A stretch of DNA of 64,000 nucleotides, taken from NCBI GenBank assembly GCA_965223265.1, contig OZ244999.1:8224001-8288000 (forward strand), given 5' to 3'. Every line of letters starts with the position of its first letter. Position 1 is the stretch's first letter. Source of the DNA: Planctomycetota bacterium. GTDB lineage: Bacteria; Planctomycetota; UBA8108; SXIK01. The notes under the pieces were generated by a model. That model saw only the letters and a program-made list of their open reading frames with translations. It was not told the DNA's origin and did not search any database. Below, in pieces: positions 10,828 through 58,301 of the stretch. A program made the position numbers and the translations under genes.

Positions 10828-13800
10828 TCATGGACAAGCGGCGAAGCGCTGGCAATCGAGGTTGTCCGCGGTGGTGTCGTCGCCGCAACTGCCGAAGGGT
10901 GTAGGCAGCAGTCCCGCACCGACGAAGAGGTGGCGCAGGATCGCGACTCCGTCGGAAACGTTGAGTCTGCCGTCGTCGTTGGCATCACCGGCACGCACAC
11001 ACGTCGGCGTCCCGCCTTTTCGAAACAGGTAGTTGAGTACGAACAGCGCATCCCCCAGGTCAATCTCACCACTGGCGTCGGCGTCGCCGCGCTGAAAACG
11101 TGCGTCCAGCCGCTCAGGTGCGAGCGTACGGTCGTAGTTGTCGATCGTCGGAGTCACGATCACGTCGAAGTTCGCGTCGAGGAGTGAAACCGAAGCGGTG
11201 GTGCCAGCGAAGGGATCCGGCGCAACGATCTGGACGACGCTGACGGAGCTCGGAAGGCCCGAGGCATCCAGCGGCGGATCGAGGACAACCCAGTAACGGA
11301 CGCCGGTGTTGTGGCGTGCTGCGGAATAGACGAGATCCCAGTAGCTGTCGACGCGCCGGCGCTGGCCACCAAGCTCGACCTCGGCGTGCACCAGCGCTGC
11401 GGGTGCGGTATCAAAAAAGTTCTCAGCTTCCTCAAAGCGCTCCTCGAGCCGTATGCTGCCGAGGTCGCCGAGGTCGATCGCGATCTCCCAAAGCGGCAAG
11501 TCGTCGTAACTGCACGACCCGAAGTGGAGAAGAGGCAAGTCATTGATCGAACCGCGAAGCGACTCCTCGCCGACCAGCGTGACGAAGAACGCATCGTTGA
11601 GCGTTTGCGTCGCGTCGATCGCTTCGTCGCCGCGGGCGCGGTATTCAAGCGGCTGAGTGAGAGCAAGATCGATCGCACTGCCATCGGCGAGTACGAAGGA
11701 CTGACGGTAGGTGAAGCGGTAGAGCGTGATGTCGCCGTCGCCAGCCACACGGAGAACTCGCAGAAGACCGGGCGATGCCGGCACGGCGCTTTCCTGATCG
11801 GGACCGAGGCGGAGCTCGTCGACGAGATCGAGGCTTATCGTGTCGCGTGTCGTGTCGAGCTGGAATCGGCCGCTGCGCAGCTCGACAACGCTCTTGAGTC
11901 GGTACTCATCCTCGAGTCCGCGGTTGGAGCCGGCGAGATGAAAGACGCCGCAGGCGCGTGACCCAGGCGGGATCTCGAGCTCGAACGACGGCGTCGGTGG
12001 GATCGGTACCGAATGCAGAAACGGTCTCACTTGTTTGACGGCCAAGCTGCCATCCGGCTCGAGCTTGATCTCCATGTCGAGGAGAACTTCGTCGCGACTG
12101 TGCGTCCCGAGCTCGAGAGGAAAATTCGCATCGATGTGCCACATGAGCCGCCCGAGTTCCGAGAGCTCCGCATCGGAGAGCACCCACTCCCCTTCAGGAA
12201 GCAGAGTCGAGCCCTGAAGAGGCCGGATGATCCCGAGGACTTCACCGTTGAGCACTTCGAGCACATCTTTTTCGGCAAGCACGCCCGGCTCCGGCTGCAC
12301 GACGCTCGCTTCGCCGACCTGGACAGTGACGACATAGCGTCGATCGAGCGGGTTCGACAGGTTGCCGGTGAACGCGACGCCGTTAGCTGCTTCATCGAGA
12401 AAGGCGCGCGAAACAAGGATCCCCATGCCGACGCGGAGACCGTCGGCGTCGGACTCTGGCACGCCGAAAAAACTGCGCTCCTCGTAAGCTCTGAAGGTGT
12501 AGAGACTCGTCCAGACTTTTTTGAGTGCGCGCCGAATCGTTCGCTCACCCGATTTCGAAGCGTCGCAGAGTGACGGTCCTTCATCGTCTGCGTCGAGAGT
12601 GTCGTCGGCGCATACACCGGTCGATTCGTAGAGACCGGCGCCGTTGAACTCGAGCGCATCCTCGACATTCGACGACGATCGGAAACGCACGCTCGTGCGC
12701 GTCGACCCGAACACGTCACCGATGCGCTGCACCAATCGCTCGACGAGTGCGGGGTCAACCTCGCCGTGCTGCCGTGCAAAGTCGCGGAACGCGTCGAGTG
12801 CTGCGAAGCGGACCTCAGAATTGCTTTGAAACTCGTCTGAAGAGAAAAGCTCGAGGAGATGTTCCTCGTACGTCACCTCGCGAGCAGGATCGAGCGCGGA
12901 GGGCATCCGGTTGCCGCGCATGAACTCAAAGAAGTAGCGCGCAGGGATCGCAAATCCGTGCTCGCGGTACTGCGCCCACGGTCCTTCCAGGATGCGACCG
13001 AGGCGAGCTAGATTGGATGCTTTGCCCCCGAAGCGCGCCTCCGGCGGCGCCAACGTGCCGCTTAGATCCATGTCCCCGAGGCTCGAGAGCTCGTCGAATT
13101 CGCGGTCGATCTCAGGGAGTGTCGAAAGTTGCGGTCGGCTGTCGCTCCAAAACTCCTCTGCCTCTTCGACCGTCGCTTCGCGGAGGCGGAATTCCGTCGC
13201 TCCGACCTCGAGGCGGATGAGCTTGCCTTCGAAAGGGCTGAACGCTACGCGGGCCTCTTCGACGAAGGCGTTGGGCGTGTTGCGCCTCGCTGTGCGGATA
13301 GCGAGGTGACTCAGCTCCCCCTGTGGCGTGCCGGTGATGACGCCGCCGACGACACCCTCGATATCGGGCGGCGCCTCATCCAGAACGAGGATGTTCTGAA
13401 ACCCGATCTGGCCGTTGTCGTTTGCGGCCTCGAATCCATCGGCGTCGAGCACGCGCACACGTCCGAACCCGACTGCCTGCGTGTACGGCACGTACGCGTT
13501 TGTTCCGGAGCCGTCGTCAAGGAAGACGGGGAAGCCGGGGTCGCGCCACGCTGCCGCCGCTTCGCGAGCCGGGCGCGTGCTCGGGAAGTACCCGAGAGGC
13601 TGCAGGGAGAACGTGGCGCTTAAGTCGGCGCGCACGGCTGCGACTTCCTCGAGGCTGAGGAGCTCGTCCTCAGACGAAGGGTCGGTGAAGACGTCGAAGC
13701 CGTACGCCAGGCCGTCCGCCGTGCGGAGGCGGCTGATGACGCCGACAAAGTATTGGCGCTCGGCCCGCCGCGCGACGAGGCGATTGAAGTCGTCGATCGT

Positions 13801-16356
13801 CAGTGCCGGGAAGCGATCCGGAAAGACCGCGGCGAGGAATTCCTGGTGCAGCTGGAATCGGCGCGAATTTTGGTAGAGCGTCGGCAGAAGATCCGCATCG
13901 CCGGTCGCCGGCATGACGTACTTGCCGGCACGGTCGACGATGCCAGCGCCGCGCGACGCCACGGAGATGCGCTCGAAATCGAGACCGGTGCAAATCGATT
14001 CGAGAAAATCTTCGTCGAACGTCACCGTGCGCACTTCGTTCAAGAACACGGTGAGCTGCCGGCCGTCATGATCAGTGCTGACGACGTCAACGTTGCCATC
14101 AAGGTTGAGGTCGACCCCGAGCGTGCGCAGCGGGATGTCACCGACTGACAATGTCTGCGGAAACGAGAAGGTCCCATCGCCGTTGCCGACGATGATCGAG
14201 ACGGAGTTAGCTCGGAGGTTTGCGGTCAAGAGGTCAGCGTGGCCGTCGCTGTTGATGTCGGCCGCTGTGACGGCTCCTACCTCTTCGCCGACGCTGTAGA
14301 ACTGAACACGGTCGAGCGTGCCGTCGCCGCGATTGAGAAAGTACGCGATCGTCGCTTGGGCGCCATTCGGTATCACAAAGTCTGGAGCGCTGTCGCCGTT
14401 CAGGTCAGCGCAGGCGATCGAACCGGGCGGCGCCGTGATGTTGTAGCTGTCGGGTGGATCGAACGTGCCGTCGCCGCGGTTCGCCAGCAGCGAAAGAATT
14501 TGGGTTTGGCCGCGCACAACAGCGATGTCGATGTCGCCGTCTCCGTCGAAGTCGTCAGCGGCGAGGCCGCGATCGCCAACGCCGACTGCGGTATCGCGTC
14601 GAGCACCGAACGTCGTGTCACCAAGTCCCTTGAGGATCGTCACTGAGCTGTCGCCGGAGTTCATCGTGAGGACGTCGGGCACGTCGTCGCCATCGACATC
14701 GCGCGCGAGAACGACGATCGGGCTGGCGCCAACGTCGTGAAATTTGGTGTCCGGGAAAGTGCCGTCGCCAGGGTTCTTGAGCACGACGACTTTGCCATCG
14801 CGCGGGGAGGTCATCACAAGATCCAGATCGTCATCGAGGTCGAGGTCGCTCACTTCGACGAACTCGACGCGGCTTGTCGGAGTCTCGTAATCGAAACGCG
14901 TCAGCGTGCCGTCGCCTTCGCTCAGGAAGACCGAGGCGAGAAGATCGGGACCGTTCGCCGTGATCACATCCACTCGGCCATCGCCGTTGACGTCGCCGGT
15001 AGCGGCCCCGTGCGGCCGGCCGTCGGGAGCGATGCCGACAGGAAAGTGACCGAAGAAGCGCAAGTTGAACGTTTGTCGCTCACCGTTCCAGAGAAAATTA
15101 ACACTGCTCAGTTCCGGGGTCAGAAATGCCACGTCTTCGTCGCCATCGCCGTCGAAGTCACCTAGTTGGATCCGCCGAAACTCAACGGTTGTTAGGTCGG
15201 TGAGTCCAAAATCGCCGCGATCGTTGTTCGTTAGGAGAGTGACGCTGCGGAAATCAGCGTTGCCGACGATGAGGTCGATATCGCCGTCACGATCGAAGTC
15301 ACCGGCGTTCACGGTACGGGCTGTTAGCGCCAAGTCGGTCGGCGAGGCGAACTCGCCGGCTCCGCTGTTGGTCCACCACGTGAGCTGTCGGTTGTTGATC
15401 AGCACCAACAAATCGAGATGGCCATCGGTATCCAGATCGACGAGCTCAACACTGGAGGGGCGACCGGGAAGAGGAAAGTCCGTCGTCACGAAAAGTCCTT
15501 CACCGTCGTTGGTAAGAATGGACGCGCTCGGGGTGGAGCGCTTCGGGATGACGAGATCGATGTCACCATCGCCGTCAATGTCGCCGCGCCGGATCTGAAT
15601 CGGTGTGCCGCTGACCGCGTAGGAAATCGCCGCGCCGAACGAGCCGCTGCCGTCATTCGCCAACACTGATACGAAACCACCCGTCGAGTTCGCGGTGATG
15701 AGATCGGGGCGATCGTCGCCGGTCACGTCGTCGGCGACGATCGTACGCGTGAATTGCTCGACCGGTAGCGTCTCTGCTGTGGCAAGAGTGCCGAGCCCGA
15801 GGTTGCGAAAGAGGAGGAGCTGCGTCGAGTTCGCCGTGACGACATCCGCGGCGTTGTCGCCATCGATGTCAGCGACAGCGATCGATGTACCTTCCGTGAG
15901 CGCATCGTAGGACACGGGAGGTGCCAACGTGCCGTCCTCTCGACTCAAGATCACAGAAACAAACGACGCGCGTTCGGTTCCCGTTTGGCTCAGGACGACG
16001 AGGTCTGCAGCGCCGTCGTCGTTGAGGTCGCCGATGGTGCTTGCCTGCGGCGTCTCGGGTACCGACATTGGCTCTGGGTCGCGCACGCCGAAGTCGAGCC
16101 CGACGCCCTCGCACTCATCGGGCAGTCCGTTGCGATTGCAATCCTCACTCGCAAGCGATTGCAGGTCGACGACGTCTTCGACACCGTTGGCGTTGCAGTC
16201 TGCGCTGCGGGCGAGGTCGATCGGTAGCAGGCAAAACGTGGTTGCTACGATCGGCAGCACGGGCGAGTCGAGCAGCGACCAAGACCAGCGTCGAGGTTTG
16301 CAAGCGGGGCGTCGACGGGTGCGCGCGTCCAAAGACATGAACTTAGGTCGCATCAT
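10828..16356 (-). CDS. Secreted FG-GAP/VCBS repeat + phospho-His + ATP-grasp (PPDK_N-type) dikinase-like + dockerin-like protein, copy 1 (divergent)
   Basis: ADCNANG motif, many D-x-D/N-G-D-G repeats, GGVITGTPQGELSHLAIRTARR, FGGKASNL, RFRSSSNVEDALEFNGAGLYES, VWTSLYTFRA, VKQVRP, FQRGDADASG...GDANDDGRLNVSD; ATGA overlap with the stop of copy 2. Confidence 0.85.
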   Translation of the reverse strand: MMRPKFMSLDARTRRRPACKPRRWSWSLLDSPVLPIVATTFCLLPIDLARSADCNANGVEDVVDLQSLASEDCNRNGLPDECEGVGLDFGVRDPEPMSVPETPQASTIGDLNDDGAADLVVLSQTGTERASFVSVILSREDGTLAPPVSYDALTEGTSIAVADIDGDNAADVVTANSTQLLLFRNLGLGTLATAETLPVEQFTRTIVADDVTGDDRPDLITANSTGGFVSVLANDGSGSFGAAISYAVSGTPIQIRRGDIDGDGDIDLVIPKRSTPSASILTNDGEGLFVTTDFPLPGRPSSVELVDLDTDGHLDLLVLINNRQLTWWTNSGAGEFASPTDLALTARTVNAGDFDRDGDIDLIVGNADFRSVTLLTNNDRGDFGLTDLTTVEFRRIQLGDFDGDGDEDVAFLTPELSSVNFLWNGERQTFNLRFFGHFPVGIAPDGRPHGAATGDVNGDGRVDVITANGPDLLASVFLSEGDGTLTRFDYETPTSRVEFVEVSDLDLDDDLDLVMTSPRDGKVVVLKNPGDGTFPDTKFHDVGASPIVVLARDVDGDDVPDVLTMNSGDSSVTILKGLGDTTFGARRDTAVGVGDRGLAADDFDGDGDIDIAVVRGQTQILSLLANRGDGTFDPPDSYNITAPPGSIACADLNGDSAPDFVIPNGAQATIAYFLNRGDGTLDRVQFYSVGEEVGAVTAADINSDGHADLLTANLRANSVSIIVGNGDGTFSFPQTLSVGDIPLRTLGVDLNLDGNVDVVSTDHDGRQLTVFLNEVRTVTFDEDFLESICTGLDFERISVASRGAGIVDRAGKYVMPATGDADLLPTLYQNSRRFQLHQEFLAAVFPDRFPALTIDDFNRLVARRAERQYFVGVISRLRTADGLAYGFDVFTDPSSEDELLSLEEVAAVRADLSATFSLQPLGYFPSTRPAREAAAAWRDPGFPVFLDDGSGTNAYVPYTQAVGFGRVRVLDADGFEAANDNGQIGFQNILVLDEAPPDIEGVVGGVITGTPQGELSHLAIRTARRNTPNAFVEEARVAFSPFEGKLIRLEVGATEFRLREATVEEAEEFWSDSRPQLSTLPEIDREFDELSSLGDMDLSGTLAPPEARFGGKASNLARLGRILEGPWAQYREHGFAIPARYFFEFMRGNRMPSALDPAREVTYEEHLLELFSSDEFQSNSEVRFAALDAFRDFARQHGEVDPALVERLVQRIGDVFGSTRTSVRFRSSSNVEDALEFNGAGLYESTGVCADDTLDADDEGPSLCDASKSGERTIRRALKKVWTSLYTFRAYEERSFFGVPESDADGLRVGMGILVSRAFLDEAANGVAFTGNLSNPLDRRYVVTVQVGEASVVQPEPGVLAEKDVLEVLNGEVLGIIRPLQGSTLLPEGEWVLSDAELSELGRLMWHIDANFPLELGTHSRDEVLLDMEIKLEPDGSLAVKQVRPFLHSVPIPPTPSFELEIPPGSRACGVFHLAGSNRGLEDEYRLKSVVELRSGRFQLDTTRDTISLDLVDELRLGPDQESAVPASPGLLRVLRVAGDGDITLYRFTYRQSFVLADGSAIDLALTQPLEYRARGDEAIDATQTLNDAFFVTLVGEESLRGSINDLPLLHFGSCSYDDLPLWEIAIDLGDLGSIRLEERFEEAENFFDTAPAALVHAEVELGGQRRRVDSYWDLVYSAARHNTGVRYWVVLDPPLDASGLPSSVSVVQIVAPDPFAGTTASVSLLDANFDVIVTPTIDNYDRTLAPERLDARFQRGDADASGEIDLGDALFVLNYLFRKGGTPTCVRAGDANDDGRLNVSDGVAILRHLFVGAGLLPTPFGSCGDDTTADNLDCQRFAACP

Positions 16357-19300
16357 GGCGAATCGCAGGGTGAGTGTGCGAAGCAGGAAAGGAGATCGGG
16401 TGTCGTGTCCGCGCCGCAGCCGGTGAAAGGTGCTGCAAGGTCGCCGCGGCCGGCGAACAGATGGAGAAGAATCGTGACCCCGTCCGTGACGTTGAGCTTG
16501 CCATCGTCGTTGGCGTCGGCTGATTTGACGCAGCTTGGGGCTACGGCGCGGCCAAAGATGTAGTTGAGAGCGGCAAGTGCGTCAGAGAGATCGAGCTGGC
16601 CGCTCGCGTCGACATCGCCGCGCCGAAACGGGGTTGGCTCGGCCTCGGTCTCGCGTCGGTCGAAGGATGTGACGTCGAGCGTCTTGAGCGGCTCAAGGTC
16701 GACGCCGAGATAGCGAGCGGTCGCCACACTGGTCGAAGTTGGCTCTGCAAACTCAATGGCGCGCACGAGCCCGCCGGTTCCATCCACGGCGACGGGTTCC
16801 GCGAGGACGATCCAGTAGTGCACGGCGAGGTTGTGGCGCGACGCCGAGTAGACGAGGCGCCAGTAGTCGCGGATGGTCTCTTCGTGACCGCCGGGCAGCG
16901 ACACGGTCGCGCGCTGGAGGCTCGCAGGGTTCGTGCCGAAGAAGCGGGCTTCATCATCGGAGAAGCGTTCGTTGAGCGTTAGTGTGCCGCCGTCGGCAAG
17001 AGTGACATCGATCCGCCACAGGGGCAAGAGCTGGTGGCGGCACGAGCCGTAGTTGACCAGGCGCTGTCCGTTGACGCGTGCCTTCAGCGGCTCGAGGCTC
17101 GCTTGAGTCGTGAATTCTGCATCGCTCAAGACGCGTACACCTGAAATCGGTTCTTCACCACGCGCCTCAAACTCGAGGGGTGCGAGAAGCTCGATCTCCA
17201 AGACGGTGCCATCGTCGAGGCCCCAGCGCTGCGCGAAGGTGAAGCGATACTTCGTCAGCTCGCCGTTGGGTATGCGCCGCAGACGAAAGCGCCCGCTCTC
17301 GAGCGGCGTCGCGACTTGGCGCTCAGGTCCGAAGCGGACTTCGTCAAAGAGCTCGGCGGTGAACGAGTCCCGCGTCGTTGTGAGCGGGATCGTTCCGCTG
17401 CGCAGCTTGACGTTGCTTTTCAGCTCGTATTCCTGACGCGGACCACGATTCACCCCCGCCTCTTGAAACACCCCACAGAGCTCGAAGCCCTCGGGCACCT
17501 CCAGCGTGAACTCCGGCGTTGGCGGCGGAGGCTCCGAGAGAAGGAACGGACGCACCTGCTTCACCGCCAGCTCTCCGTCGCTCATGAACTTGTACTCAAC
17601 GTCGAGCAGCACCTGAGAGCGATCGAAACGCCCCAGATCCAGAGGAAAGTTCTCATCCATGTGCCACATCAGGCGCCCAAGCTCACCCAGCTGCGCCTCA
17701 CTCACTACCACCTCTCCCTCACCCACAAGCGTCGAGCGCACCGCACGGATCACCTCCACCACTTCACCTTCAACAAGCTCCAGAACGTTCGTCTCCGCTA
17801 AGACACCCGGCTCGGGGCTCACCACACTCTCCTCTCCAAGCTGCGCCGTCACCACGTAGCGCCGATCGAGAATGTTCGACGTGTTCCCCGTAAACGCCAC
17901 TCCCTGAGACGCCTCACCTATGAACGTGCGGTTCACCAAGATCCCCATCGCCGCGATCTCTTGGTCAATCCCGAAAAACTCTCGCTCCTCGTACGCCCGG
18001 AAGTTCCACAGACTCCTCCACACCCGCTTCAGAGCGCGCGTGATCGTGCGCTCATTTGTCTCCTCGGAGTCGCACTGCGACGGGCCCTCCTCATCGCCGT
18101 CAAACTCATCGGCTAGGCACCCGCTCGTTGAGTTGTAGAGACCGGCGCCGTTGAACTGAAGGTCGTCCTCCACGTTCGAAGACGAGCGAAAGCGCACACG
18201 CGTTGTCTCACTTGTGCCCATCACCTCGCGCACTCGCGCTGCCACCAGCGCGATCACCTCCGCGCGCACAACACCCTCATCGCGCATGTGATCGCGCAGC
18301 ATGTCCAGAGCTTCGAAGCGAACGCGAGAGTCCGTCTGAAAGCTCTCATCGACTAAAAGCTCCTGCACGTACTCCTCGTACGTCACCTCTCGACTGCGGT
18401 CGAGGAAAGACTCCAGGCGGTTCTCGCGCATGAACTCCACGTAGTAGCGCATCGGGATCGCAAAACCCTTCTCCTGGTACTCGGCGTACTCCCCCGTCAG
18501 GATCTCCTGCAGACGCGAGAGGTTCGTCGCCTTCCCCCCGAAGCGAGGCACTCCCGAAAGACCACTCGACTCCAGCTCCGCGATCTCTCCCAGCGTCAAA
18601 AGCTCCGAGAACTCGCTGTCGAGCGTCGGCGCTACCTCCAGGCTTGGCCGGCTCGTGCGCCAGTGCTCCTCCGCCTCCTCCTGGCTCGCCGCGCGGATCG
18701 TGTAGCCCCCCGCTGTCACCTCTAGGCGAACCAGCTGGCCGTCCCACTCCCGAAACTCCTCCAAAGCCCCGGAGACGTACGCGTTCGGCGTTCCTCGACG
18801 CGCTGTGCGGATCGCCAGGTGACTCAGCTCCACTTGCCTCTGACCTGTCACCACGCCGCTGAAGACTCCTTCGATGTCCCGTGGGGCGATCTCTAAGACC
18901 AAGATGTTCTGAAAGCTGATCTCCCCTGTCTCACTCGCAGCGCTCAGTTCCTCTTCCGTCAGCACCCGCAGGCGCCCGAAGCCCACACCTTGGGTGTACG
19001 CCTCGAAGTCCACAGGGCCGCTGGTGGTGTCGAAGAAAATCTCAAACTCCGCGCCGCTCCACTCAGAGGCGCGATCGCGCGCCGCTGGTGTGTCTGGGAA
19101 GTACCCCAGCGGCTCCAGCGTGAACGTCTGGCGCAGCTCGGCGTACACCGCCCCCACCTCCTCCTGCCTCAGAAGCTCCGTGCTGTCAGAGCCGTCCACA
19201 ACCACCGTGAAGCCGTACGCGATCCCGCCCGACTCGCTCTCGCTCCCCGGTAGGCGAAGCCGGTTGATCACACCAGCGTAGTACTCGCGCGTGGCGCGCC

Positions 19301-21857: not shown

Positions 21858-21888
21858 GGCAGCTCGAGTTGAACGGTTCGATGCAGCA

Positions 21889-22410
21889 AGATAGCAGGCA
21901 CGGTCCGAGGCTAGGAATTCTTTAACGTGCCGTCGTAACTCACGGTCACGTCGGGACGGCATACAGCAGTGGGCGACTACTTTGAAGATCGAGTTGGTGA
22001 CGGTACGTGCCCATAGTAGCAGGCACACGCCGTGTGCCGTAGCGCTCTTTCGTTAGTACGATCGCTCCCATTGAGGGTCTATCTCACGCTCCTTGCGAGC
22101 CTCGCGTGAATCTTTTTTCTTGGCGCCAAGAGCGCAAGGTCGCAACGGAAGTGGAGACGTGTTTGAGCGCCTGACGCTTCTCTGCCAGGTCTTCGTTGAC
22201 TTCGTTTGCTTCGTTTGCTGCCGGTGAAGAGATGAGAAGAAGAACTGAACAAAAGGAAACGAAGTCAACGAAGGGCGGCCGCGCAAAGTAGCAGGCACAC
22301 GCCGTGTGCCGTCCGGAGGTGATGGTACGAAGGCATGTTTTAAATCTTCACAGCCTCGCCGCGTGCCGTCGCTCAGTCTCCCGTTACGGTATACAGAAGT
22401 TTGCCTACTA
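21889..22410. repeat. Cluster of GTAG-type REP-like palindromic elements
   Basis: (AA)AGTAGCAGGCACACGCCGTGTGCCGT at 22015 and 22285, degenerate inverted partners ending CTACTTT/CTACTA; related to 58303-58500. Confidence 0.75.
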
Positions 22411-22425
22411 CGTTCCGGACAGGTC

Positions 22426-41510: not shown

Positions 41511-41596
41511 TTTGTCTCGGGGGGAGGTTTGCTCATGGGCGGTTGCTACGGCGCCTGACGCCGGGTCTGAGGTGGACGGCAGCGGAAAGCGCTCCC

Positions 41597-50200: not shown

Positions 50201-52779
50201 GTGAGACAGGGGAGATCAGCTTTCAGAACATCTTGGTCTTAGAGATCGCCCCACGGGACATCGAAGGAGTCTTCAGCGGCGTGGTGACAGGTCAGAGGCA
50301 AGTGGAGCTGAGTCACCTGGCGATCCGCACAGCGCGTCGAGGAACGCCGAACGCGTACGTCTCCGGGGCTTTGGAGGAGTTTCGGGAGTGGGACGGCCAG
50401 CTGGTTCGCCTAGAGGTGACAGCGGGGGGCTACACGATCCGCGCGGCGAGCCAGGAGGAGGCGGAGGAGCACTGGCGCACGAGCCGGCCAAGCCTGGAGG
50501 TAGCGCCGACGCTCGACAGCGAGTTCTCGGAGCTTTTGACGCTGGGAGAGATCGCGGAGCTGGAGTCGAGTGGTCTTTCGGGAGTGCCTCGCTTCGGGGG
50601 GAAGGCGACGAACCTCTCGCGTCTGCAGGAGATCCTGACGGGGGAGTACGCCGAGTACCAGGAGAAGGGTTTTGCGATCCCGATGCGCTACTACGTGGAG
50701 TTCATGCGCGAGAACCGCCTGGAGTCTTTCCTCGACCGCAGTCGAGAGGTGACGTACGAGGAGTACGTGCAGGAGCTTTTAGTGGATGAGAGCTTTCAGA
50801 CGGACTCTCGCGTTCGCTTCGAAGCTCTGGACATGCTGCGCGATCACATGCGCGATGAGGGTGTTGTGCGCGCGGAGGTGATCGCGCTGGTGGCAGCGCG
50901 AGTGCGCGAGGTGATGGGCACAAGTGAGACAACGCGTGTGCGCTTTCGCTCGTCTTCGAACGTGGAGGACGACCTTCAGTTCAACGGCGCCGGTCTCTAC
51001 AACTCAACGAGCGGGTGCCTAGCCGATGAGTTTGACGGCGATGAGGAGGGCCCGTCGCAGTGCGACTCCGAGGAGACAAATGAGCGCACGATCACGCGCG
51101 CTCTGAAGCGGGTGTGGAGGAGTCTGTGGAACTTCCGGGCGTACGAGGAGCGAGAGTTTTTCGGGATTGACCAAGAGATCGCGGCGATGGGGATCTTGGT
51201 GAACCGCACGTTCATAGGTGAGGCGTCTCAGGGAGTGGCGTTTACGGGGAACACGTCGAACATTCTCGATCGGCGCTACGTGGTGACGGCGCAGCTGGGT
51301 GAGGAGAGCGTGGTGAGCCCCGAGCCGGGTGTCTTAGCGGAGACGAACGTGCTGGAGCTTGTTGAAGGTGAAGTGGTGGAGGTGATCCGTGCGGTGCGCT
51401 CGACGCTTGTGGGTGAGGGAGAGGTGGTAGTGAGTGAGGCGCAGCTGGGTGAGCTTGGGCGCCTGATGTGGCACATGGATGAGAACTTTCCTCTGGATCT
51501 GGGGCGTTTCGATCGCTCTCAGGTGCTGCTCGACGTTGAGTACAAGTTCATGAGCGACGGAGAGCTGGCGGTGAAGCAGGTGCGTCCGTTCCTTCTCTCG
51601 GAGCCTCCGCCGCCAACGCCGGAGTTCACGCTGGAGGTGCCCGAGGGCTTCGAGCTCTGTGGGGTGTTTCAAGAGGCGGGAGCGGGCCGTGGACTGCGCG
51701 ATGAGTATGATCTCAAGAGCGTGGTGGAGTTCTCTGGGGGAGAGCACGTTCTTCGCAGTGACCGCGAGGTGTTCACCGGTGAGCTTTTCAGCGGTGTGTT
51801 CCTGGGCCCATCGCAAGAGCCAGGAGTGGCTGTAGGGAAGGGAACGTACCGCCTGACGCGGTTTTCAGAAGCCGGCGCAGTGACGGCGTATCGTTACACG
51901 TACTCGCAGCGCTATGCACTTTCTGAGAGCGGTGAGGAGTACGAGGTGTCGGTGGTGACGCCGTTTGAGTTCCGGGCTCGCGGCGAGGAGACTCTGGGGG
52001 GCGGTCGTTTGGTGCTCTCTGACATTGAGTTCAAGAGTCGTCCGAGCCAGGAGCGGGTGAGCGGGCGGATCGGCGGAGCGCCGCGCGTGCGCTACGCATC
52101 TTGTGACTTCAGTGACTTACCGCTGTGGGAGGTGATCGCGGTTGGCGAGGACGGGACTCGTATTGAGGCGCTCGAGCGCTTCGATGAGGAGGCGAGCACG
52201 TTCGAGACGTCTCGAGCGTCCTTAGAGCGAGCGCGAGTGGAGATCGGCGGTGTGGTGCAGGATCTGAGGTCGTACACGCAGCTGGTGTACTCTGCGTCTC
52301 GTCACAACACTGCAGTGGGTTACTGGCTGGTGCTGAACGAGTCGGTGGAGCTTGAGGGGGTGAGCGGCGGTAGAGTTCGGGTCGTGGAGTACGCTCAGGG
52401 AGAGGGCGGCGAGTCGGGATCTCTGCGTTACCTGGGAGAGGACCTGAGCGAGCTTGGCCGAGCGAGCGTGAGCTCAGAGCGCCGTGAGGAGCGCGGCGAG
52501 GAGGAGCGAGAGTTTCGCCGCGGCGATGTGAATGCCGACGGATTGGTGGATCTTGCCGACGCTTTGGGAGTTTTGAACTACTTGTTTCGCCGCGCGGCGG
52601 AGCCGAGCTGCGTGCGTGCGGCGGACGCCGACGACAACGGCCGCGTGAACGTCTCGGACGCCGTGGTGATCCTGCTGCACCTCTTTGCCGGCGGCGGCCC
52701 CCTGCCTGAGCCCACCGCCTGTGGTCTCGACACCACCGGCGACTCGCTCTCCTGCTACGACGCGGCGGCGTGTCGCTGA
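47227..52779 (+). CDS. Secreted FG-GAP/dikinase-like/dockerin-like protein, copy 4
   Basis: Signal ending ALAADCNLNG; unique FG-GAP region; core and tail nearly identical to copy 3; start may be 47239. Confidence 0.87.
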   Translation: MSVRMRRRRFSCYVPDIALGIPCLVHACIVALLIAIGTAAALAADCNLNGVEDAEEVASGVAQDCNADEIPDACQFAPTEFGFGSDRLPLISSPRGVAAADFNGDGWDDLAIGSQDAARVSTLTVFLSRGDGSFETGIEHAATDDLTGTAVGEFNGDSAIDIVSVSSVAVDIFLNDGNGAFTRAPVPLEVPKFTRTIGTADVLRGGGNDLIVANSVDGTVGVLPGNGDGTFGALVDIRVGDRPSALALADIDADGWDDIVSANTSSRNISIVASSAGDALAAPIVLDAAGLRPLAVATADFDGDGHVDLAASGQQGTRIWLQRASGAGELGTFDFDEAIVFSAGAATLLSADFDTDGDADLVGVEVGLGALQVWIDAGTGGFGATRLATPGVRQFAAGDFDGNGAEDFCLTTADPDGANVLLSGLGSATIDMEQTRVVFDRLPHDVQVVDLNRDGNLDVVSANGHSDSISLAFGQGDGSFSPIVHHHLGNWGHANSIDVGDFDRDGDMDIVTADFEGRDTIPGVVAEVTQIAVIYNRGDGLPERTVTYPTGRESWMVRTQDLDGDGRLDLFTANRAAETATLYFGLEDGTFGRREDIPAGDTPAAVFAADLDADGDADLLAANSVSARVSILVNRGVGNFDPPHTIEVALGPNFVSAADVNSDGRVDVLTTHEPSRSVGVLLGRGGLEYDPPLSFPLRSAPFSLTAVDLSGDGFLDLIVPHGGETTVLLGRGDGTFPVFFQYVVGAQPRFSAAGDLNSDGAMDFVVGNRFTRDISVFLQRRNATELTAAFLDGICTAADFHALSLPARTSSLVERAGKYITPARPEDGALLETTYQNVRRFALHQEFLAAVFPDRFPSLGAEAYAALTARRATRDYYVGVINRLRLAASESEAGGIAYGFTVVVDGSDSAELLTQEEVEAVYAELRKTFTLEPLGYFPDTPAARDRASEWSGAEFEIFFDTTSGPVDFEAYTQGVGFGRLRVLTEEELSAASETGEISFQNILVLEIAPRDIEGVFSGVVTGQRQVELSHLAIRTARRGTPNAYVSGALEEFREWDGQLVRLEVTAGGYTIRAASQEEAEEHWRTSRPSLEVAPTLDSEFSELLTLGEIAELESSGLSGVPRFGGKATNLSRLQEILTGEYAEYQEKGFAIPMRYYVEFMRENRLESFLDRSREVTYEEYVQELLVDESFQTDSRVRFEALDMLRDHMRDEGVVRAEVIALVAARVREVMGTSETTRVRFRSSSNVEDDLQFNGAGLYNSTSGCLADEFDGDEEGPSQCDSEETNERTITRALKRVWRSLWNFRAYEEREFFGIDQEIAAMGILVNRTFIGEASQGVAFTGNTSNILDRRYVVTAQLGEESVVSPEPGVLAETNVLELVEGEVVEVIRAVRSTLVGEGEVVVSEAQLGELGRLMWHMDENFPLDLGRFDRSQVLLDVEYKFMSDGELAVKQVRPFLLSEPPPPTPEFTLEVPEGFELCGVFQEAGAGRGLRDEYDLKSVVEFSGGEHVLRSDREVFTGELFSGVFLGPSQEPGVAVGKGTYRLTRFSEAGAVTAYRYTYSQRYALSESGEEYEVSVVTPFEFRARGEETLGGGRLVLSDIEFKSRPSQERVSGRIGGAPRVRYASCDFSDLPLWEVIAVGEDGTRIEALERFDEEASTFETSRASLERARVEIGGVVQDLRSYTQLVYSASRHNTAVGYWLVLNESVELEGVSGGRVRVVEYAQGEGGESGSLRYLGEDLSELGRASVSSERREERGEEEREFRRGDVNADGLVDLADALGVLNYLFRRAAEPSCVRAADADDNGRVNVSDAVVILLHLFAGGGPLPEPTACGLDTTGDSLSCYDAAACR
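49630..52755 (+). repeat. Second copy of the 3.1-kb direct repeat
   Basis: Matches 43931-47056 with scattered SNP patches. Confidence 0.95.
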
Positions 52780-52856
52780 TGTCCGCTGCGCGTCGTACAA
52801 ACGAAGCCGTAAAATGAAGCCTTGGGGCTGCCGAGTCAGAAGATAGAGGAACTCAA

Positions 52857-55800
52857 ATGAACAATCGACGGATCCTCAGCGCTTTGCTCGCCGCCTGCGC
52901 TTTCTGTTTCTCGCTTTCCGCGACGGCGGCCGATTGCAACCGCAATGGCGTCGAGGATGCCGCCGACCTCACCGCCGGAACGAGCCAGGACTGTAACGCC
53001 AACCAGATTCCCGACGAGTGCGAACAAGCGCCGCTCGCGTTCGGTCTCGTCGAAGGTGATTACTCAGTGAGTGAGGGACCCGTCGCGGCGGTGAGCGGGG
53101 ATTTCGACGGGGATGGCCTGCTGGACATCGCGACCGGTAGCAAGGACAGCACCAACGTCTCGACGCTGACGGTGCTCCTTAGCCAGGGCGACAAAACGTT
53201 CGTGCACGCCGGGAACTTCGCAGCGGGTGAGCGGCTCGCGTCACTGGCGGCGGTCGATTGGGATGGAGACGGCGACGTCGATCTCGTCAGCGCAAATTCA
53301 TCCCTCGTGTCGACGTTCGCCAACAACGGCGACGGCACCTTTGGCGCGCCGCAGCAATACCCGGCACAGTCGAGCACGTCAGCCGCCACCGCCGCCGACA
53401 TCTCAGGCGATGGTCTTCCCGAGCTTCTCGCCGCCAGCGCGCTGCGCAGTAACGTCGGTGTCTACCCCAACCTGGGCGATGGCACCTTCGGTGAAGCCAC
53501 CCTCGTTCCAGTCGGCCGTCGACCGATCGCGATTTTCGCGGTTGATTTGAATGGTGACGGCGCGGTCGATGTGACGACGCTCAACCGCAACGACGCCAAT
53601 CTCTCGATTCTCGTCAACGACGGCGCCGGAGGGTTGATCGCGAACGACCCCGTCGCTTTCGAAGGATTGCCGACAGCCTACACAGTCGCCGACCTGAGCG
53701 GCGATGGCTTTCCCGACCTCGTCGCGGCCAATCGTGAACGTTTCAGCGTTTGGATCAACAACGGCGACGCCACGTTCGGTGTGCCGGCGACCCACGACGT
53801 TCCGACACACTCGCTCGCTGCGGGCGATCTTGACGGTGACGGCGATGTCGATGTGGCTGTCGGCTCGTTCGCGCAGTCGCACGTCCTTCTCTTCGACAAC
53901 GACGGCAAGGGGGTGCTGGAAGAGCGCGCCACCATCGTCACCGAATTCGACGCTCTTCTCTCAGAGCATCTCAGCGATCTTGACGGCGACGGCGCTGTCG
54001 ATCTGACGACGGTGCGTGAGCTTTTCTCTCGCGTTGACATTTTTTGGAACGGTGTTCCCGGCGCTTCCGCTGTGAGCCTTGATCCCGTCACCGTCGTGAT
54101 TGACCGCGAGCCCCACCACGTTAACTTGTTGGATGTTGATGGCGACGGCCACCTCGATGTCGTCTCGGGCAACGGTGACAACCGTTCGATCTCCGTCATG
54201 GTGAACCAAGGTGACGGTACGTTCGCGAGCGGGCGCGAGTTTCCCGTCGATGAGCCGAAGGATTTTATTCGGCTCGACTCGATCGACGGCGGTGATTTTG
54301 ACAACGACGGCGACGTTGACGTCCTCAGCGCCGATGCGTGGGGCGACGTGTTGCGGATTCACTTCAACGACGGTGACGGCAACTTCCCGACGTGGGACCT
54401 TTACGACGCTGGCCTGGGAACGGTGCGCGCCGAGACGGCTGATTTCGACAGCGACGGCGAGCTCGATCTCATGAGCGTCAACACTGAAGGCAACACGGTT
54501 ACCATCTACACCGGCGTTGGTGATGGCACGTTCAAGGATCGTCGCGACCTGCCGGTCGGCGTTGGTCCGTTCGCTCTCACCACGGTTGATCTCGACGGCG
54601 ATGGCCACGTCGACGCAGCCATCGCCAACCGGACGTCGTCGGACCTCTCGCTCCTCTACGGTAACGGCGACGGCACTTTCGCCGACGTTGTCAGTCTTGC
54701 GGTGAGCGGTGAGGCGCGCTCGGCGGTCGCCGCGGACCTCGACGACGACGGTATCCTCGACCTACTCACGGCCCATCGTTCGCGTGCTTCCATCTTCCGC
54801 GGCCTTGGTGGTCGCAGCTACGCACCCGCGCAGATCATCGTGTTCGAGCGGGACGTGCACACGGCGATCGCAACGGATGTCGACGTCGACGGCGTCTTGG
54901 ATATCGTGACCGCCAACGAGACGACGGACAGCATGTCAGTTCTTCTCGGTTTGGGAGGTGCGGAGTACCTGCCTCCGTTTCATCTCTTTGCCGGCGACGG
55001 ATTGCGATTTCTCCTCACCGACGATATCGATGCCGATGGCGACCTCGACGTGATCACCGGCAATCGTGTCGGCCGCGATCTCACTGTCTTTCGTAATCGA
55101 TTCGATACGCTCGTCGGCAGCGAAGATTTTTTGACATCCGTTTGCACTGCGCGCGACTTTCATCTCTACACTGTTCCCACCAACACGAGCAGTTTAGTGG
55201 AGCGTGCGGGCAAGTACATAACGCCTGCGCGGCCAGAAGACGGTGCGCTTTTGGAGACGACGTATCAGAACGTTCGTCGCTTCGCGCTGCACCAGGAGTT
55301 TTTGGCAGCGGTGTTCCCGGACCGCTTCCCGAGCCTCGGTGCGGAGGCTTACGCAGCGCTGACGGCACGGCGCGCCACGCGCGAGTACTACGCTGGTGTG
55401 ATCAACCGGCTTCGCCTACCGGGGAGCGAGAGCGAGTCGGGCGGGATCGCGTACGGCTTCACGGTGGTTGTGGACGGCTCTGACAGCACGGAGCTTCTGA
55501 GGCAGGAGGAGGTGGGGGCGGTGTACGCCGAGCTGCGCAAGACGTTCACGCTGGAGCCGCTGGGGTACTTCCCAGACACACCAGCGGCGCGCGATCGCGC
55601 CTCTGAGTGGAGCGGCGCGGAGTTTGAGATTTTCTTCGACACCACCAGCGGCCCTGTGGACTTCGAGGCGTACACCCAAGGTGTGGGCTTCGGGCGCCTG
55701 CGGGTGCTGACGGAAGAGGAACTGAGCGCTGCGAGTGAGACAGGGGAGATCAGCTTTCAGAACATCTTGGTCTTAGAGATCGCCCCACGGGACATCGAAG

Positions 55801-58301
55801 GAGTCTTCAGCGGCGTGGTGACAGGTCAGAGGCAAGTGGAGCTGAGTCACCTGGCGATCCGCACAGCGCGTCGAGGAACGCCGAACGCGTACGTCTCCGG
55901 GGCTTTGGAGGAGTTTCGGGAGTGGGACGGCCAGCTGGTTCGCCTAGAGGTGACAGCGGGGGGCTACACGATCCGCGCGGCGAGCCAGGAGGAGGCGGAG
56001 GAGCACTGGCGCACGAGCCGGCCAAGCCTGGAGGTAGCGCCGACGCTCGACAGCGAGTTCTCGGAGCTTTTGACGCTGGGAGAGATCGCGGAGCTGGAGT
56101 CGAGTGGTCTTTCGGGAGTGCCGCGCTTCGGGGGGAAGGCGACAAACCTCTCACGCCTGCAGGAGATTCTGACGGGGGAGTACGCCGAGTACCAGGAGAA
56201 GGGTTTTGCGATCCCGATGCGCTACTACGTGGAGTTCATGCGCGAGAACCGCCTGGAGTCTTTCCTCGACCGCAGTCGAGAGGTGACGTACGAGGAGTAC
56301 GTGCAGGAGCTTTTAGTGGATGAGAGCTTTCAGACGGACTCTCGCGTTCGCTTCGAAGCTCTGGACATGCTGCGCGATCACATGCGCGATGAGGGTGTTG
56401 TGCGCGCGGAGGTGATCGCGCTGGTGGCAGCGCGAGTGCGCGAGGTGATGGGCACAAGTGAGACAACGCGTGTGCGCTTTCGCTCGTCTTCGAACGTGGA
56501 GGACGACCTTCAGTTCAACGGCGCCGGTCTCTACAACTCAACGAGCGGGTGCCTAGCCGATGAGTTTGACGGCGATGAGGAGGGCCCGTCGCAGTGCGAC
56601 TCCGAGGAGACAAATGAGCGCACGATCACGCGCGCTCTGAAGCGGGTGTGGAGGAGTCTGTGGAACTTCCGGGCGTACGAGGAGCGAGAGTTTTTCGGGA
56701 TCGACCAAGAGATCGCGGCGATGGGGATCTTGGTGAACCGCACGTTCATAGGTGAGGCTTCTCAGGGAGTGGCGTTTACGGGGAACACGTCGAACATTCT
56801 CGATCGGCGCTACGTGGTGACGGCGCAGCTGGGTGAGGAGAGCGTGGTGAGCCCCGAGCCGGGTGTCTTAGCGGAGACGAACGTGCTGGAGCTTGTGGAA
56901 GGTGAAGTGGTGGAGGTGATCCGTGCGGTGCGCTCGACGCTAGTGGGTGAGGGTGAGGTGGTTCTCAGTGAGGGGCAGCTGGGTGAGCTTGGGCGCCTGA
57001 TGTGGCACATGGATGAGAACTTTCCTCTGGATCTGGGGCGTTTCGATCGCTCTCAGGTGCTGCTCGACGTTGAGTACAAGTTCATGAGCGACGGAGAGCT
57101 GGCGGTGAAGCAGGTGCGTCCGTTCCTTCTCTCGGAGCCTCCGCCGCCAACGCCGGAGTTCACGCTGGAGGTGCCCGAGGGCTTCGAGCTCTGTGGGGTG
57201 TTTCAAGAGGCGGGAGCACGGCGCGGACCGCTGGAGGAATATGAGCTCAAGAGCCGCATTCGTTTCGTCGGCGGTCCCATCGCGCTGCGGACGGATCGAG
57301 AGATCTTCGCCGCCGATTTGATCGACGAGCTGAGATTCGGTCCGAGTCAAGAGCTCGCCACGGCCGACGGCGCAGGAACGTTTCGCGTCAACCGGGTCGC
57401 CGGCCCAGGTGACGTGACGATCTATCGATTCACGTTCTTGCAGTCGTTCCGCCTCGCCGATGACCGACCGTTCGAACTCCGACTCCTCACGCCGCTTGAG
57501 TTCCGTGCGCGCGGCGACGAGCCGGTTGAAGCATCCTTGTTGTTCACGAATGAATTCTTCACGCAGCGACCGAATACCGAGGCATTTCAAGCGCGACTCG
57601 ACGGCAACTTCCTCGTCCACTACGGCGCCTGCAACTACGACCACCTGGACCTCCACCGAACGCGCGTCGAGCTCGAGGACGGCAGTACGCTGCGACTCGA
57701 CGAGCGCTTTCTCGAAGCCGACAGCGAGGTCGAAACCGGGCCGGCGGCTCTCATCGACGCAGTCGTCGTGATCGGCGGCACGCGTCAGCGCGTTACCGAC
57801 TATTGGCGCCTTGTCTACTCCGCTTTTCGCCACAACCAGGGCGTGCGCTATTGGGTGGTGCTCGATCCGCCGCTGAGCATTGAAAGCTTGGCACCGATTC
57901 ACGCCGTCGAGCTCAGAGCTGCGGAAGATAACCAGCCGGCGAGCGCCGCGTATCTCGGCGCCAGCTTAGAGGTGCTACGTGAAATTGGGGTGAGTGCGTT
58001 CGAGCGCACGCGCATCACGGAAGCGTCCGAGTTTGTTCGCGGCGACGCCAACAGCGACGGTCTCGTCGATGCCGCCGACGTGATTTTCATCCTGAACTAC
58101 ATCTTCCGCGACGGCGACCCGATCACCTGTCAAAGTGCGGCAGACGCGGACGACAATGGTCGACTCAACGTCTCGGACGCGATCGGTATCCTGCTGCGCC
58201 TCTTCGCCGGAGCGCCGCCGCTCCCCGCGCCATCCGACGCCTGTGGCGAGGATCCGACCGTCGACACGCTGAGCTGCGCATCCGCTCCAGCGTGCTTGTA
58301 G
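52857..58301 (+). CDS. Secreted FG-GAP/dikinase-like/dockerin-like protein, copy 5
   Basis: GAGGA RBS, Sec signal MNNRRILSALLAACAFCFSLSATA|ADCNRNG; shared core; unique C-terminal domain; FVRGDANSDG dockerin-like tag. Confidence 0.9.
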   Translation: MNNRRILSALLAACAFCFSLSATAADCNRNGVEDAADLTAGTSQDCNANQIPDECEQAPLAFGLVEGDYSVSEGPVAAVSGDFDGDGLLDIATGSKDSTNVSTLTVLLSQGDKTFVHAGNFAAGERLASLAAVDWDGDGDVDLVSANSSLVSTFANNGDGTFGAPQQYPAQSSTSAATAADISGDGLPELLAASALRSNVGVYPNLGDGTFGEATLVPVGRRPIAIFAVDLNGDGAVDVTTLNRNDANLSILVNDGAGGLIANDPVAFEGLPTAYTVADLSGDGFPDLVAANRERFSVWINNGDATFGVPATHDVPTHSLAAGDLDGDGDVDVAVGSFAQSHVLLFDNDGKGVLEERATIVTEFDALLSEHLSDLDGDGAVDLTTVRELFSRVDIFWNGVPGASAVSLDPVTVVIDREPHHVNLLDVDGDGHLDVVSGNGDNRSISVMVNQGDGTFASGREFPVDEPKDFIRLDSIDGGDFDNDGDVDVLSADAWGDVLRIHFNDGDGNFPTWDLYDAGLGTVRAETADFDSDGELDLMSVNTEGNTVTIYTGVGDGTFKDRRDLPVGVGPFALTTVDLDGDGHVDAAIANRTSSDLSLLYGNGDGTFADVVSLAVSGEARSAVAADLDDDGILDLLTAHRSRASIFRGLGGRSYAPAQIIVFERDVHTAIATDVDVDGVLDIVTANETTDSMSVLLGLGGAEYLPPFHLFAGDGLRFLLTDDIDADGDLDVITGNRVGRDLTVFRNRFDTLVGSEDFLTSVCTARDFHLYTVPTNTSSLVERAGKYITPARPEDGALLETTYQNVRRFALHQEFLAAVFPDRFPSLGAEAYAALTARRATREYYAGVINRLRLPGSESESGGIAYGFTVVVDGSDSTELLRQEEVGAVYAELRKTFTLEPLGYFPDTPAARDRASEWSGAEFEIFFDTTSGPVDFEAYTQGVGFGRLRVLTEEELSAASETGEISFQNILVLEIAPRDIEGVFSGVVTGQRQVELSHLAIRTARRGTPNAYVSGALEEFREWDGQLVRLEVTAGGYTIRAASQEEAEEHWRTSRPSLEVAPTLDSEFSELLTLGEIAELESSGLSGVPRFGGKATNLSRLQEILTGEYAEYQEKGFAIPMRYYVEFMRENRLESFLDRSREVTYEEYVQELLVDESFQTDSRVRFEALDMLRDHMRDEGVVRAEVIALVAARVREVMGTSETTRVRFRSSSNVEDDLQFNGAGLYNSTSGCLADEFDGDEEGPSQCDSEETNERTITRALKRVWRSLWNFRAYEEREFFGIDQEIAAMGILVNRTFIGEASQGVAFTGNTSNILDRRYVVTAQLGEESVVSPEPGVLAETNVLELVEGEVVEVIRAVRSTLVGEGEVVLSEGQLGELGRLMWHMDENFPLDLGRFDRSQVLLDVEYKFMSDGELAVKQVRPFLLSEPPPPTPEFTLEVPEGFELCGVFQEAGARRGPLEEYELKSRIRFVGGPIALRTDREIFAADLIDELRFGPSQELATADGAGTFRVNRVAGPGDVTIYRFTFLQSFRLADDRPFELRLLTPLEFRARGDEPVEASLLFTNEFFTQRPNTEAFQARLDGNFLVHYGACNYDHLDLHRTRVELEDGSTLRLDERFLEADSEVETGPAALIDAVVVIGGTRQRVTDYWRLVYSAFRHNQGVRYWVVLDPPLSIESLAPIHAVELRAAEDNQPASAAYLGASLEVLREIGVSAFERTRITEASEFVRGDANSDGLVDAADVIFILNYIFRDGDPITCQSAADADDNGRLNVSDAIGILLRLFAGAPPLPAPSDACGEDPTVDTLSCASAPACL
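55188..57217 (+). repeat. ~2.0-kb near-identical core in copy 5
   Basis: Offset 11233 bp from the copy 3 core; SSLVERAGKY to CGVFQEAGA. Confidence 0.95.

Follow-up and report, generated by a model that had tools for sequence, protein, structure and literature searches.

Predicted exported, modular dikinases with calcium-loop propellers and dockerins: a 35-copy family in a Planctomycetota genome

Five giant genes lie in a 64,000-nucleotide stretch (here called the window; positions 8,224,001-8,288,000 of a single 9,179,496-bp contig, 62% G+C) of the genome of a Planctomycetota bacterium, and the evidence tips, by a modest degree, towards the reading that they encode exported, modular dikinases of the PEP-utilising superfamily. 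This reading is built on sequence comparison and a predicted structure: a core in which a phospho-His swivel domain precedes an ATP-grasp domain is found behind an export signal and a region of calcium-loop repeats, and ahead of a dockerin-like module. A preliminary description of the window had recognised a candidate five-gene system. Its domain assignments and its prediction of export are supported, but it had missed that the five belong to a 35-copy family, that the core begins with a conserved N-terminal domain, and that the cores of four of the copies have been homogenised by recombination. The description knew of no characterised example, and a literature search likewise returned no paper on the dikinase family. 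As it also anticipated, public names for family members are generic ('VCBS repeat-containing', 'FG-GAP-like repeat-containing' and 'PEP/pyruvate-binding domain-containing protein').

Results

ORF (open reading frame) calling and translation of the window gave five giant ORFs of 1,814-1,902 codons each at the places described earlier, all with one architecture: export signal, about 14 FG-GAP blades, a core of about 650 residues, a variable beta-rich domain and a dockerin. All motifs quoted before were found in the translations, a first block reading GFGR(L/V)RVL ... NILVL ... GV(V/I)TG ... ELSHLAIRTARR.TPNA and a second one comprising FGGKA.NL, GFAIP, RFRSSSNVED, GAGLY, MGILV, GVAFT and VKQVRP. 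The codon of the catalytic His of copy 5, given as 55848, was located at 55848-55850. The five genes, the modules of copy 5 and the cassette shared by four of the cores are as follows.

10828..16356, minus strand: copy 1 (P0002, 1842 aa), by ORF and Pfam; His1017 codon 13306-13308
16353..22028, minus strand: copy 2 (P0003), by ORF and Pfam; His1070 codon 18819-18821
41375..47083, plus strand: copy 3 (P0005), by ORF and Pfam; His1081 codon 44615-44617
47227..52779, plus strand: copy 4 (P0006), by ORF and Pfam; His1030 codon 50314-50316
52857..58301, plus strand: copy 5 (P0001, 1814 aa), whole gene, by ORF, translation and Pfam
52857..52928, plus strand: copy 5, predicted Sec-type signal peptide, aa 1-24 (MNNRR and a hydrophobic stretch, ...ATA|ADC), by sequence; hydrophobicity 2.51
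52929..53027, plus strand: copy 5, three-Cys acidic motif ADCNxNGxxD...DCNANxIPDECE, by sequence
53034..55136, plus strand: copy 5, FG-GAP/VCBS repeats, by Pfam FG-GAP_3 (11 stretches, E 5e-73) and loop positions
55170..55661, plus strand: copy 5, N-domain of the core, aa 772-935, predicted alpha/beta, by AlphaFold2 (AF2; predicted local distance difference test, pLDDT, 92) and conservation
55659..56024, plus strand: copy 5, predicted phospho-His swivel domain, aa 935-1056, with the His998 codon at 55848-55850, by VIA, Foldseek and the invariant His
56055..57149, plus strand: copy 5, PPDK_N ATP-grasp domain, aa 1067-1431, including an acidic insert with two invariant Cys, by Pfam, PDB profile and VIA
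57150..58031, plus strand: copy 5, variable beta-rich C-terminal domain, aa 1432-1725, by strands in model residues 664-739
58041..58298, plus strand: copy 5, dockerin type I-like module and three-Cys tail, by Pfam Dockerin_1 (21.9 bits, cut-off 22.9)
17415..19472, minus strand: shared core cassette of 2058 nt, 97-98% identical to 43964-46021, 49663-51720 and 55197-57254, by repeat search

Copy 1 is the divergent one, its core being about 57% identical to those of the other four, and the stop of copy 2 overlaps its start. For copy 2 a Met at about 21857 is the likely start. Copies 3 and 4 are almost identical from the core through the C-terminus; the long ORF of copy 3 overlaps a HEAT-repeat gene (40129-41478), so that its start is probably a Met near 41597.

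The core, which carries the reading, is ordered as an N-domain of about 165 residues, a phospho-His swivel domain and a PPDK_N ATP-grasp domain. PF01326 (PPDK_N) scored above its cut-off of 27 bits in all five copies (40.7-52.9 bits) and likewise exceeded it in all 51 sequences of an alignment of diverse homologues (A1). The core of copy 5 was modelled with AF2 (743 residues; mean pLDDT 91, predicted template modelling score 0.84) and compared with solved structures by Foldseek and VIA-align. Model residues 296-660 form the ATP-grasp domain and superimpose on rifampin phosphotransferase (RPH, 5hv1) with a Z of 29.7 over 294 residues at a root-mean-square deviation of 2.3 A, on PEP synthase (PEPS, 2ols) with a Z of 28.3 and on PPDK (1dik) with a Z of 21.1, in line with the earlier assignment of the second motif block to this fold. 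The comparison of the core with PEPS and RPH that had been proposed as a check gave matches to both, the best Foldseek hits being RPH (E 1.4e-15), PEPS (9e-11) and PPDK (5e-5), besides the phosphoryl-carrier domain of PPDK (2fm4; E 2.6e-3, probability 1.00, 28% identity). Searching the PDB with the sequence of a single protein reached just E ~0.07 to PEPS; the profile of A1 was stronger and found PEPS 8a8e at E 5e-14, with GGK, RSS..ED and D.E...Q.RP aligned, as they also were with 2ols.

By its predicted fold, the SH segment is a swivel domain. Model residues 164-285 match the His domain of RPH (5fbu; Z 11.8, 102 residues, 24% identity), the C-terminal domain of S. aureus pyruvate kinase (Z 11.5) and the N-domain of Enzyme I (Z 10.4). 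The earlier claim that this segment corresponds to the swivelling domain is thus upheld at the level of the predicted fold, but not by the ordinary swivel profile PF00391, which detected the segment in none of the 51 homologues at E<=1 and in none of the 35 paralogs; across the genome this profile found only six ordinary genes. The only swivel-type profile that touches the His segment is PF22973 (GWD1_pHisD), with matches in 21 of the 51 homologues at E<=1 (best E 0.0037) and at 25 places in the genome, every one of them inside the paralogs (best 24.4 bits). As all of these matches are sub-threshold, the likeness to the starch dikinases is real yet sub-threshold. The His domain precedes the ATP-grasp domain, as described before, which reverses what is seen in the solved PEPS and RPH chains with their N-terminal ATP-grasp. 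A PEP/pyruvate TIM barrel (PEP-utilizers_C, PF02896) was found at E<=0.01 in none of the five proteins, also in agreement with the description, and the NCBIfam equivalogs of PEPS scored 35.1 and 26.4 bits, far below their cut-offs of 598 and 740.

The putative catalytic residues are highly conserved. All 35 paralogs are identical at H227, R231, R235, G321-G322-K323, R436, R438, S439 and S440, and likewise at E444, D445, E635, K637, K647, Q648, R650 and P651; D633 is kept in 34, the remaining one having Glu. The catalytic His is also invariant in the 51 diverse homologues. Degenerate ATP-binding residues, which the preliminary description had named as evidence that would count against it, were therefore not seen. 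With a median core identity of 54%, the retention of these motifs is hard to reconcile with pseudoenzymes.

The N-domain is as conserved as the rest of the core and is kept even in the shortest relatives of about 700 aa. Folded alone it gave a confident alpha/beta model (pLDDT 92), for which Foldseek returned a best E of 0.14 and the structural comparison with 48,161 PDB representatives a best Z of 4.1, no chain reaching Z>=5. In domain numbering H41 is invariant, and K15, P19, F49, Y61, R71, G76, G96 and P135 are nearly so. A weak Atlas lead (0.77) would point toward a possible counterpart in glucan, water dikinase (GWD). Stand-alone proteins of N-domain and His segment yielded only six matches, which are probably fragments since five of them lie on contigs of <=1.2 kb.

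The modules that flank the core were identified with Pfam in all five proteins, where the FG-GAP/VCBS repeats of about 700 aa and the dockerin-like tag of the preliminary description were both recovered. FG-GAP_3 matches 11-13 stretches per protein (E 1e-59 to 4.5e-79), and the repeats fill the N-terminal ~700 aa. In copy 5, 14 loops of the DxDxDG calcium type are spaced about 49 aa apart, so that two seven-bladed propellers would fit this region. Dockerin_1 (PF00404) matched each of the whole proteins (E 6e-7 to 0.0026). In a search with the C-terminal pieces by themselves, copies 1, 2 and 3 scored 25.2, 24.1 and 33.4 bits against the cut-off of 22.9; copy 4 scored 29.9 bits in the scan of the whole protein, and copy 5, at 21.9, falls just short. 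A type I dockerin with two calcium loops is hence above the cut-off in four of the five copies, and the modules contain extra Cys residues and a Cys-rich tail. Cohesin PF00963 was found above its cut-off at three places in the genome, two of them in proteins that combine a cohesin with a dockerin (L080:1111-2922, minus strand, genome ~9.02 Mb; L081:1-1962, minus strand, genome ~1.53 Mb). This pair resembles the adaptor scaffoldins of cellulosomes, and its members are possible docking partners of the dikinases.

The C-terminal domain between core and dockerin (aa 1432-1725 of copy 5) had no Pfam match at E<=0.1 and no usable Atlas match, and the A1 profile, which spans part of it, matched solely PEPS and RPH in the PDB. 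No families of carbohydrate-binding modules (CBM) were found by Pfam at E<=0.01 in the five proteins. Similarity to TcB-like Tc toxins (TcdB_toxin_midN, SpvB, RHS) was considered and rejected, as it amounts to one match of 15.9 bits (cut-off 24.8) over 23 residues in one copy. Right after the signal peptide, all five copies have the acidic three-Cys motif ADCNxNGxxD...DCNANxIPDECE, for which there was no Pfam match; it may be a small module stabilised by calcium or disulfide.

Three features support export of the proteins: signals at the N-terminus, a small number of Cys whose positions are conserved, and relatives of lipoprotein type. A signal peptide had been claimed for all five copies and, accordingly, a basic-then-hydrophobic N-terminus just before ADCNxNG appears in each (Kyte-Doolittle 12-residue means 2.37-3.04); the same pattern lies ahead of the ADCN motif in 28 of the 35 paralogs. 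Homologues without propellers were examined in other organisms, and 33 of these 43 start with Met and a hydrophobic stretch, several with lipoprotein boxes, the remainder being mostly truncated records; the propeller-less relatives in Myxococcota have signal or lipoprotein peptides. The mature form of copy 5, about 1,790 residues long, contains only 12 Cys; for most of these, the other copies have a Cys at the corresponding position, and the two Cys of the ATP-grasp insert are invariant in all 35 paralogs. Few but conserved Cys, dockerins and propellers with calcium loops are all typical of proteins outside the cytoplasm. A cytoplasmic location, the other finding that the preliminary description had named as counting against it, is therefore not favoured by these predicted features.

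By tblastn the genome holds 35 full-length paralogs (~190 kb) and one fragment. Median identity across the paralogs is 0.30 for the propeller, the most diverged part, 37% for the C-terminal domain, 52% for the dockerin and 0.54 for the core. In ten pairs, which fall into three clusters (2311465/2317452 at ~2.31 Mb; 4620846/4626296/4637885 at ~4.62-4.64 Mb; copies 2-5 of the window), the cores are 0.98-1.00 identical and the propellers only 0.32-0.41. Copies 2-5 share a cassette of ~2.06 kb that is 97-98% identical and has sharp borders. In a codon-level comparison its ~660 codons differ in few, mostly synonymous patches, and the flanks are unalignable; these patchy differences show the copies to be separate loci and not assembly duplicates. 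The near-identical cores behind diverged propellers point to recombination that either keeps the engines uniform or exchanges the propellers, its junction being the start of the N-domain. An isolated fragment at genome positions 8070890-8071309 (minus strand) covers only the first 148 core residues at 44% identity and is probably a gene remnant.

Beyond this genome, searching with the core returned 2,376 cluster representatives at E<=1e-3, of which 866 remain at E<=1e-30, and 567 of 575 matched stretches in species genomes were relatives. Members with propellers measure about 1,800 aa, those without them about 1,080 aa and core-only forms about 700 aa; a few are far larger. Record titles place the relatives most often in Planctomycetota and also in Verrucomicrobiales, Omnitrophota, Myxococcota, classes of Chloroflexota and Sumerlaeia. 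Among 30 related genomes the family was present in 26 with 1-11 copies each; one family of small genomes had no copies in its four searched genomes. The figure legend of a preprint on giant proteins of Omnitrophota lists PPDK_N among the frequent domains.

The neighbours in the window comprise a sulfatase fusion, GH95, a symporter, enolase-superfamily enzymes, a GntR regulator and multihaem cytochromes. The sulfatase is part of an apparent fusion with an enolase-superfamily (MR_MLE) protein (58573-61374, minus strand), which adjoins the GH95 gene at 61256-63721. A multihaem cytochrome ORF (8560-10809, minus strand; Cytochrome_C7, C554 and MtrC/MtrF-like matches with paired CXXCH) is directly downstream of copy 1 on the same strand and overlaps an enolase-superfamily ORF (7262-9187), so that one of the two starts is probably wrong. 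The sixth giant ORF in the span (31410-37007, plus strand, 1,865 aa) is unrelated to the five (DUF6797 / Laminin_G_3); its product has an internal tandem duplication with one Laminin_G_3 between the halves, each half consisting of DUF6797 and a DUF7133/SGL/GSDH-like beta-propeller region. The HEAT-repeat gene that adjoins copy 3 on its upstream side (40129-41478, plus strand) encodes, from an internal Met, a lipoprotein-like signal (…LAIGSGWIGC); its product was considered as an ATP carrier and rejected, since it looks like a lipoprotein instead.

Directly upstream of copies 2 and 1, and on the same strand, lies a gene for a CotH protein (22426-25335, minus strand) with signal peptide, lamin-tail domain, Fn3_assoc/CHB_HEX_C and a CotH match of E 3e-50. 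CotH is expanded in the genome (55 matches in open frames of 515-1,861 aa), which adds another large family of phosphotransferases that use ATP and appear to be exported. Under random placement of the 35 paralogs, CotH within 10 kb of nine compares with 3.8 expected (p ~0.025, the loci not being independent), and within 6 kb of four with 2.3 expected (p 0.22). As CotH is so hugely expanded, this adjacency is only weakly above chance, and a functional link was not adopted given the weak enrichment and the dependence among loci.

Partners were also sought at loci of relatives. Of 79 loci 20 were picked, and with L066, L067 and L074 left out the Pfam scan covered 96 ORFs around 17 loci. The sole neighbour clusters among the 79 loci come from sets of 7-9 loci that share other flanking ORFs among themselves too. 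ORFs of 370-400 aa just downstream of the dikinase gene in L039, L044 and L072 were considered as a common partner and rejected because they are mutually unrelated, and a beta-lactamase-fold neighbour occurs only at L033 among the scanned loci. At L039 (5782-10537), from a record of a deltaproteobacterial metagenome-assembled genome, a short-form dikinase gene is followed by an unannotated 371-aa ORF and a CotH kinase gene; upstream of it, FtsE/FtsX-like genes and one for an M23 peptidase hint at a connection with the cell wall.

Discussion

Taken together, the domain content, the order of the core and the predicted export allow a mechanism to be proposed. The ATP-grasp domain would bind Mg-ATP; His998 (copy 5 numbering) would take the beta-phosphate, and the gamma-phosphate would go to water, giving AMP and Pi. 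The swivel domain would then carry the phosphate to an acceptor site, probably formed by the N-domain, in which a His is invariant and Lys, Arg and Tyr are conserved, and at this site a hydroxyl of an extracytoplasmic macromolecule (glycan, wall polymer, protein or lipid) would be phosphorylated. The propellers, and perhaps the C-terminal domain too, would choose the target, a role that fits the variation of these parts from copy to copy next to an engine that recombination keeps uniform. Through its dockerin, the enzyme would be anchored to proteins with cohesin domains whose genes lie in other parts of the genome. More tentatively, and with less than even confidence, it might be hypothesized that, beyond their cytoplasm, planctomycete-like bacteria and their relatives in several other phyla use nucleotides to drive phosphorylation. 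In the present genome, 35 docked dikinases would serve this purpose, with interchangeable calcium propellers directing one conserved phospho-His engine, and its acceptor domain of new fold, to varied external or envelope polymers. If true, this would require an unrecognised supply of ATP, or of an equivalent donor, beyond the inner membrane, which here would be independent of TLC-type carriers.

Several points weigh against the reading as exported dikinases. An ATP pool outside the bacterial cytoplasm is not known; as ATP is not expected there, an exported ATP-driven enzyme is puzzling. The TLC/NTT ATP carrier PF03219 had no match at E<=0.01 in the genome, so that a supply route of this type is unsupported here; when five other genomes with the family were searched in the same way, one gave a match. 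No recurring gene partner emerged from the Pfam scan around the 17 loci, and an all-against-all comparison of the ORFs of the 79 loci gave mostly shadow ORFs of the dikinase gene. The export signals were called from hydrophobicity and motif position alone, and the motif search did not resolve the N-termini of seven of the 35 paralogs, two of which are short forms. PF22973 never rose above its cut-off of 27 bits, and the likeness to GWD and phosphoglucan, water dikinase (PWD) in order and motifs was set against the general GWD layout. Since the N-domain is without a structural relative, it is purely by inference that we place the acceptor site there.

Among the alternatives, the one that survives best, although we regard it as unlikely, is that the proteins are effectors in other cells: the propeller would bind a prey or host surface, and the dikinase would work after delivery into an ATP-rich foreign cytoplasm, where it would phosphorylate a target or simply burn ATP to AMP and Pi. 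Such a role would remove the ATP paradox, and hypervariable binders on a constant enzyme resemble host-range diversification; lipoprotein forms might, in addition, ride in outer-membrane vesicles. The family is found, by record titles, in Myxococcota and Omnitrophota besides Planctomycetota, and all three include predators or episymbionts. For the Omnitrophota, preprints provide a basis for this lifestyle. However, neither a translocation domain nor secretion-system genes were seen in the window, the Tc-toxin-like Pfam matches are trivial (15.9 bits against 24.8), and the neighbours are of glycan-utilisation types (sulfatase, GH95, symporter, GntR). In addition, 35 dockerin-bearing paralogs look more like a docked enzyme repertoire.

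Slightly less probable still is a different chemistry, in which another donor is used, or the reaction runs in reverse from polymer phosphate via His to AMP or water, or the enzyme is charged before or during export. The ATP paradox, together with the missing TLC carrier in this genome, speaks for such a solution, as does the novelty of the N-domain, which leaves the second half-reaction unconstrained; PPDK-type chemistry is, moreover, reversible. Against it, water dikinases are effectively irreversible, and the invariance of all positions that align with the ATP-phosphate/Mg site of PEPS speaks for ordinary binding of nucleotides. Charging ahead of export would be unlikely because Sec export unfolds proteins.

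That the core is a non-catalytic module for binding or sensing, for example of extracellular nucleotides, and that the proteins are chiefly adhesins or scaffold components, appears improbable. Large propellers and a dockerin are indeed typical of adhesive or scaffolded proteins, and the catalytic role of the core is deduced from sequence and a model, but the catalytic His and the ATP/Mg residues are kept in 35 of 35 paralogs, and the His in 51 of 51 homologues. Least of all do we credit a cytoplasmic location, with the hydrophobic N-termini as start-codon artefacts or as membrane anchors that leave the bulk inside: several ORFs have uncertain starts, the signals were called by hydrophobicity and motif only and ATP is available in the cytoplasm, yet basic-then-hydrophobic N-termini precede the Cys motif in 28 of 35 paralogs, similar ones (several with lipoboxes) begin 33 of 43 short forms, and calcium-loop propellers, dockerins and sparse conserved Cys point outward.

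For the exported dikinases that we favour, the catalytic kind is known, and the novelty lies in setting and architecture: the proteins would be exported, aimed by propellers and docked, they have an additional domain whose fold matches none known, and they come in 35 copies whose engines recombination has kept alike. If they are active where their signals send them, dikinases would operate in a compartment that textbooks treat as ATP-free, and one would have to ask how energy is delivered to it and which targets, whether glycans, wall polymers or prey surfaces, receive the phosphate. The layout of the same engine with different propellers provides a natural set of specificity variants for experiments, and the core of about 650 residues is well within the usual size range of crystallography and cryo-electron microscopy.

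Among known systems, RPH of the RPH-Lm type (5hv1, 5fbs, 5fbu) gives the best ATP-grasp match as well as a match of the His domain, and, as is predicted for the present family, it is a dikinase that phosphorylates the hydroxyl of a non-pyruvate acceptor and has no TIM barrel. In contrast to the present family, its ATP-grasp is N-terminal (chain 1-327) and its His domain C-terminal (aligned range ending at 867), its acceptor domain is unmatched by the N-domain, and it is cytoplasmic. PEPS and PPDK (2ols, 8a8e, 1dik) have the same ATP-grasp fold and motifs, and the swivelling phospho-His mechanism is established for PPDK, PDB titles of PPDK entries naming swivel states of the central domain; the family differs from them in its reversed order and in the absence of PF02896 and PF00391 matches. 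With the dockerin-bearing enzymes of cellulosomes the family shares a C-terminal type I dockerin-like module with two calcium loops, and cohesin proteins in the genome, whereas its cargo is a predicted ATP-dependent phosphotransferase and not a hydrolase, and its dockerin has extra Cys. CotH kinases are, similarly, ATP-using phosphotransferases with export signals, as the Fam20C-type kinases of eukaryotes are secretory, ATP-using phosphotransferases; the CotH fold is, however, unrelated, and the gamma-phosphate is transferred directly instead of through a phospho-His dikinase.

The plant starch dikinases GWD1 and PWD (EC 2.7.9.4, 2.7.9.5) show the same succession of a targeting module, phospho-His domain and PPDK_N, without a TIM barrel. 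They phosphorylate alpha-glucan at C6 or C3. Their His domain precedes the ATP-grasp domain, and the presumed chemistry (ATP + acceptor-OH + H2O -> AMP + Pi + acceptor-phosphate) would be shared; PF22973 touches the His segment of the family at sub-threshold level. Unlike in the plant enzymes, CBM45/CBM20 are replaced by FG-GAP propellers and a dockerin, a 165-residue N-domain stands before the His domain, and there are 35 paralogs in this genome; GWD and PWD are plastidial, whereas the family is predicted to be exported. According to a 2026 review (PMC12892837), His992 of potato GWD is essential, and neither GWD nor PWD has a solved structure. In its domain order, the family is a bacterial relative of the plant starch dikinases.

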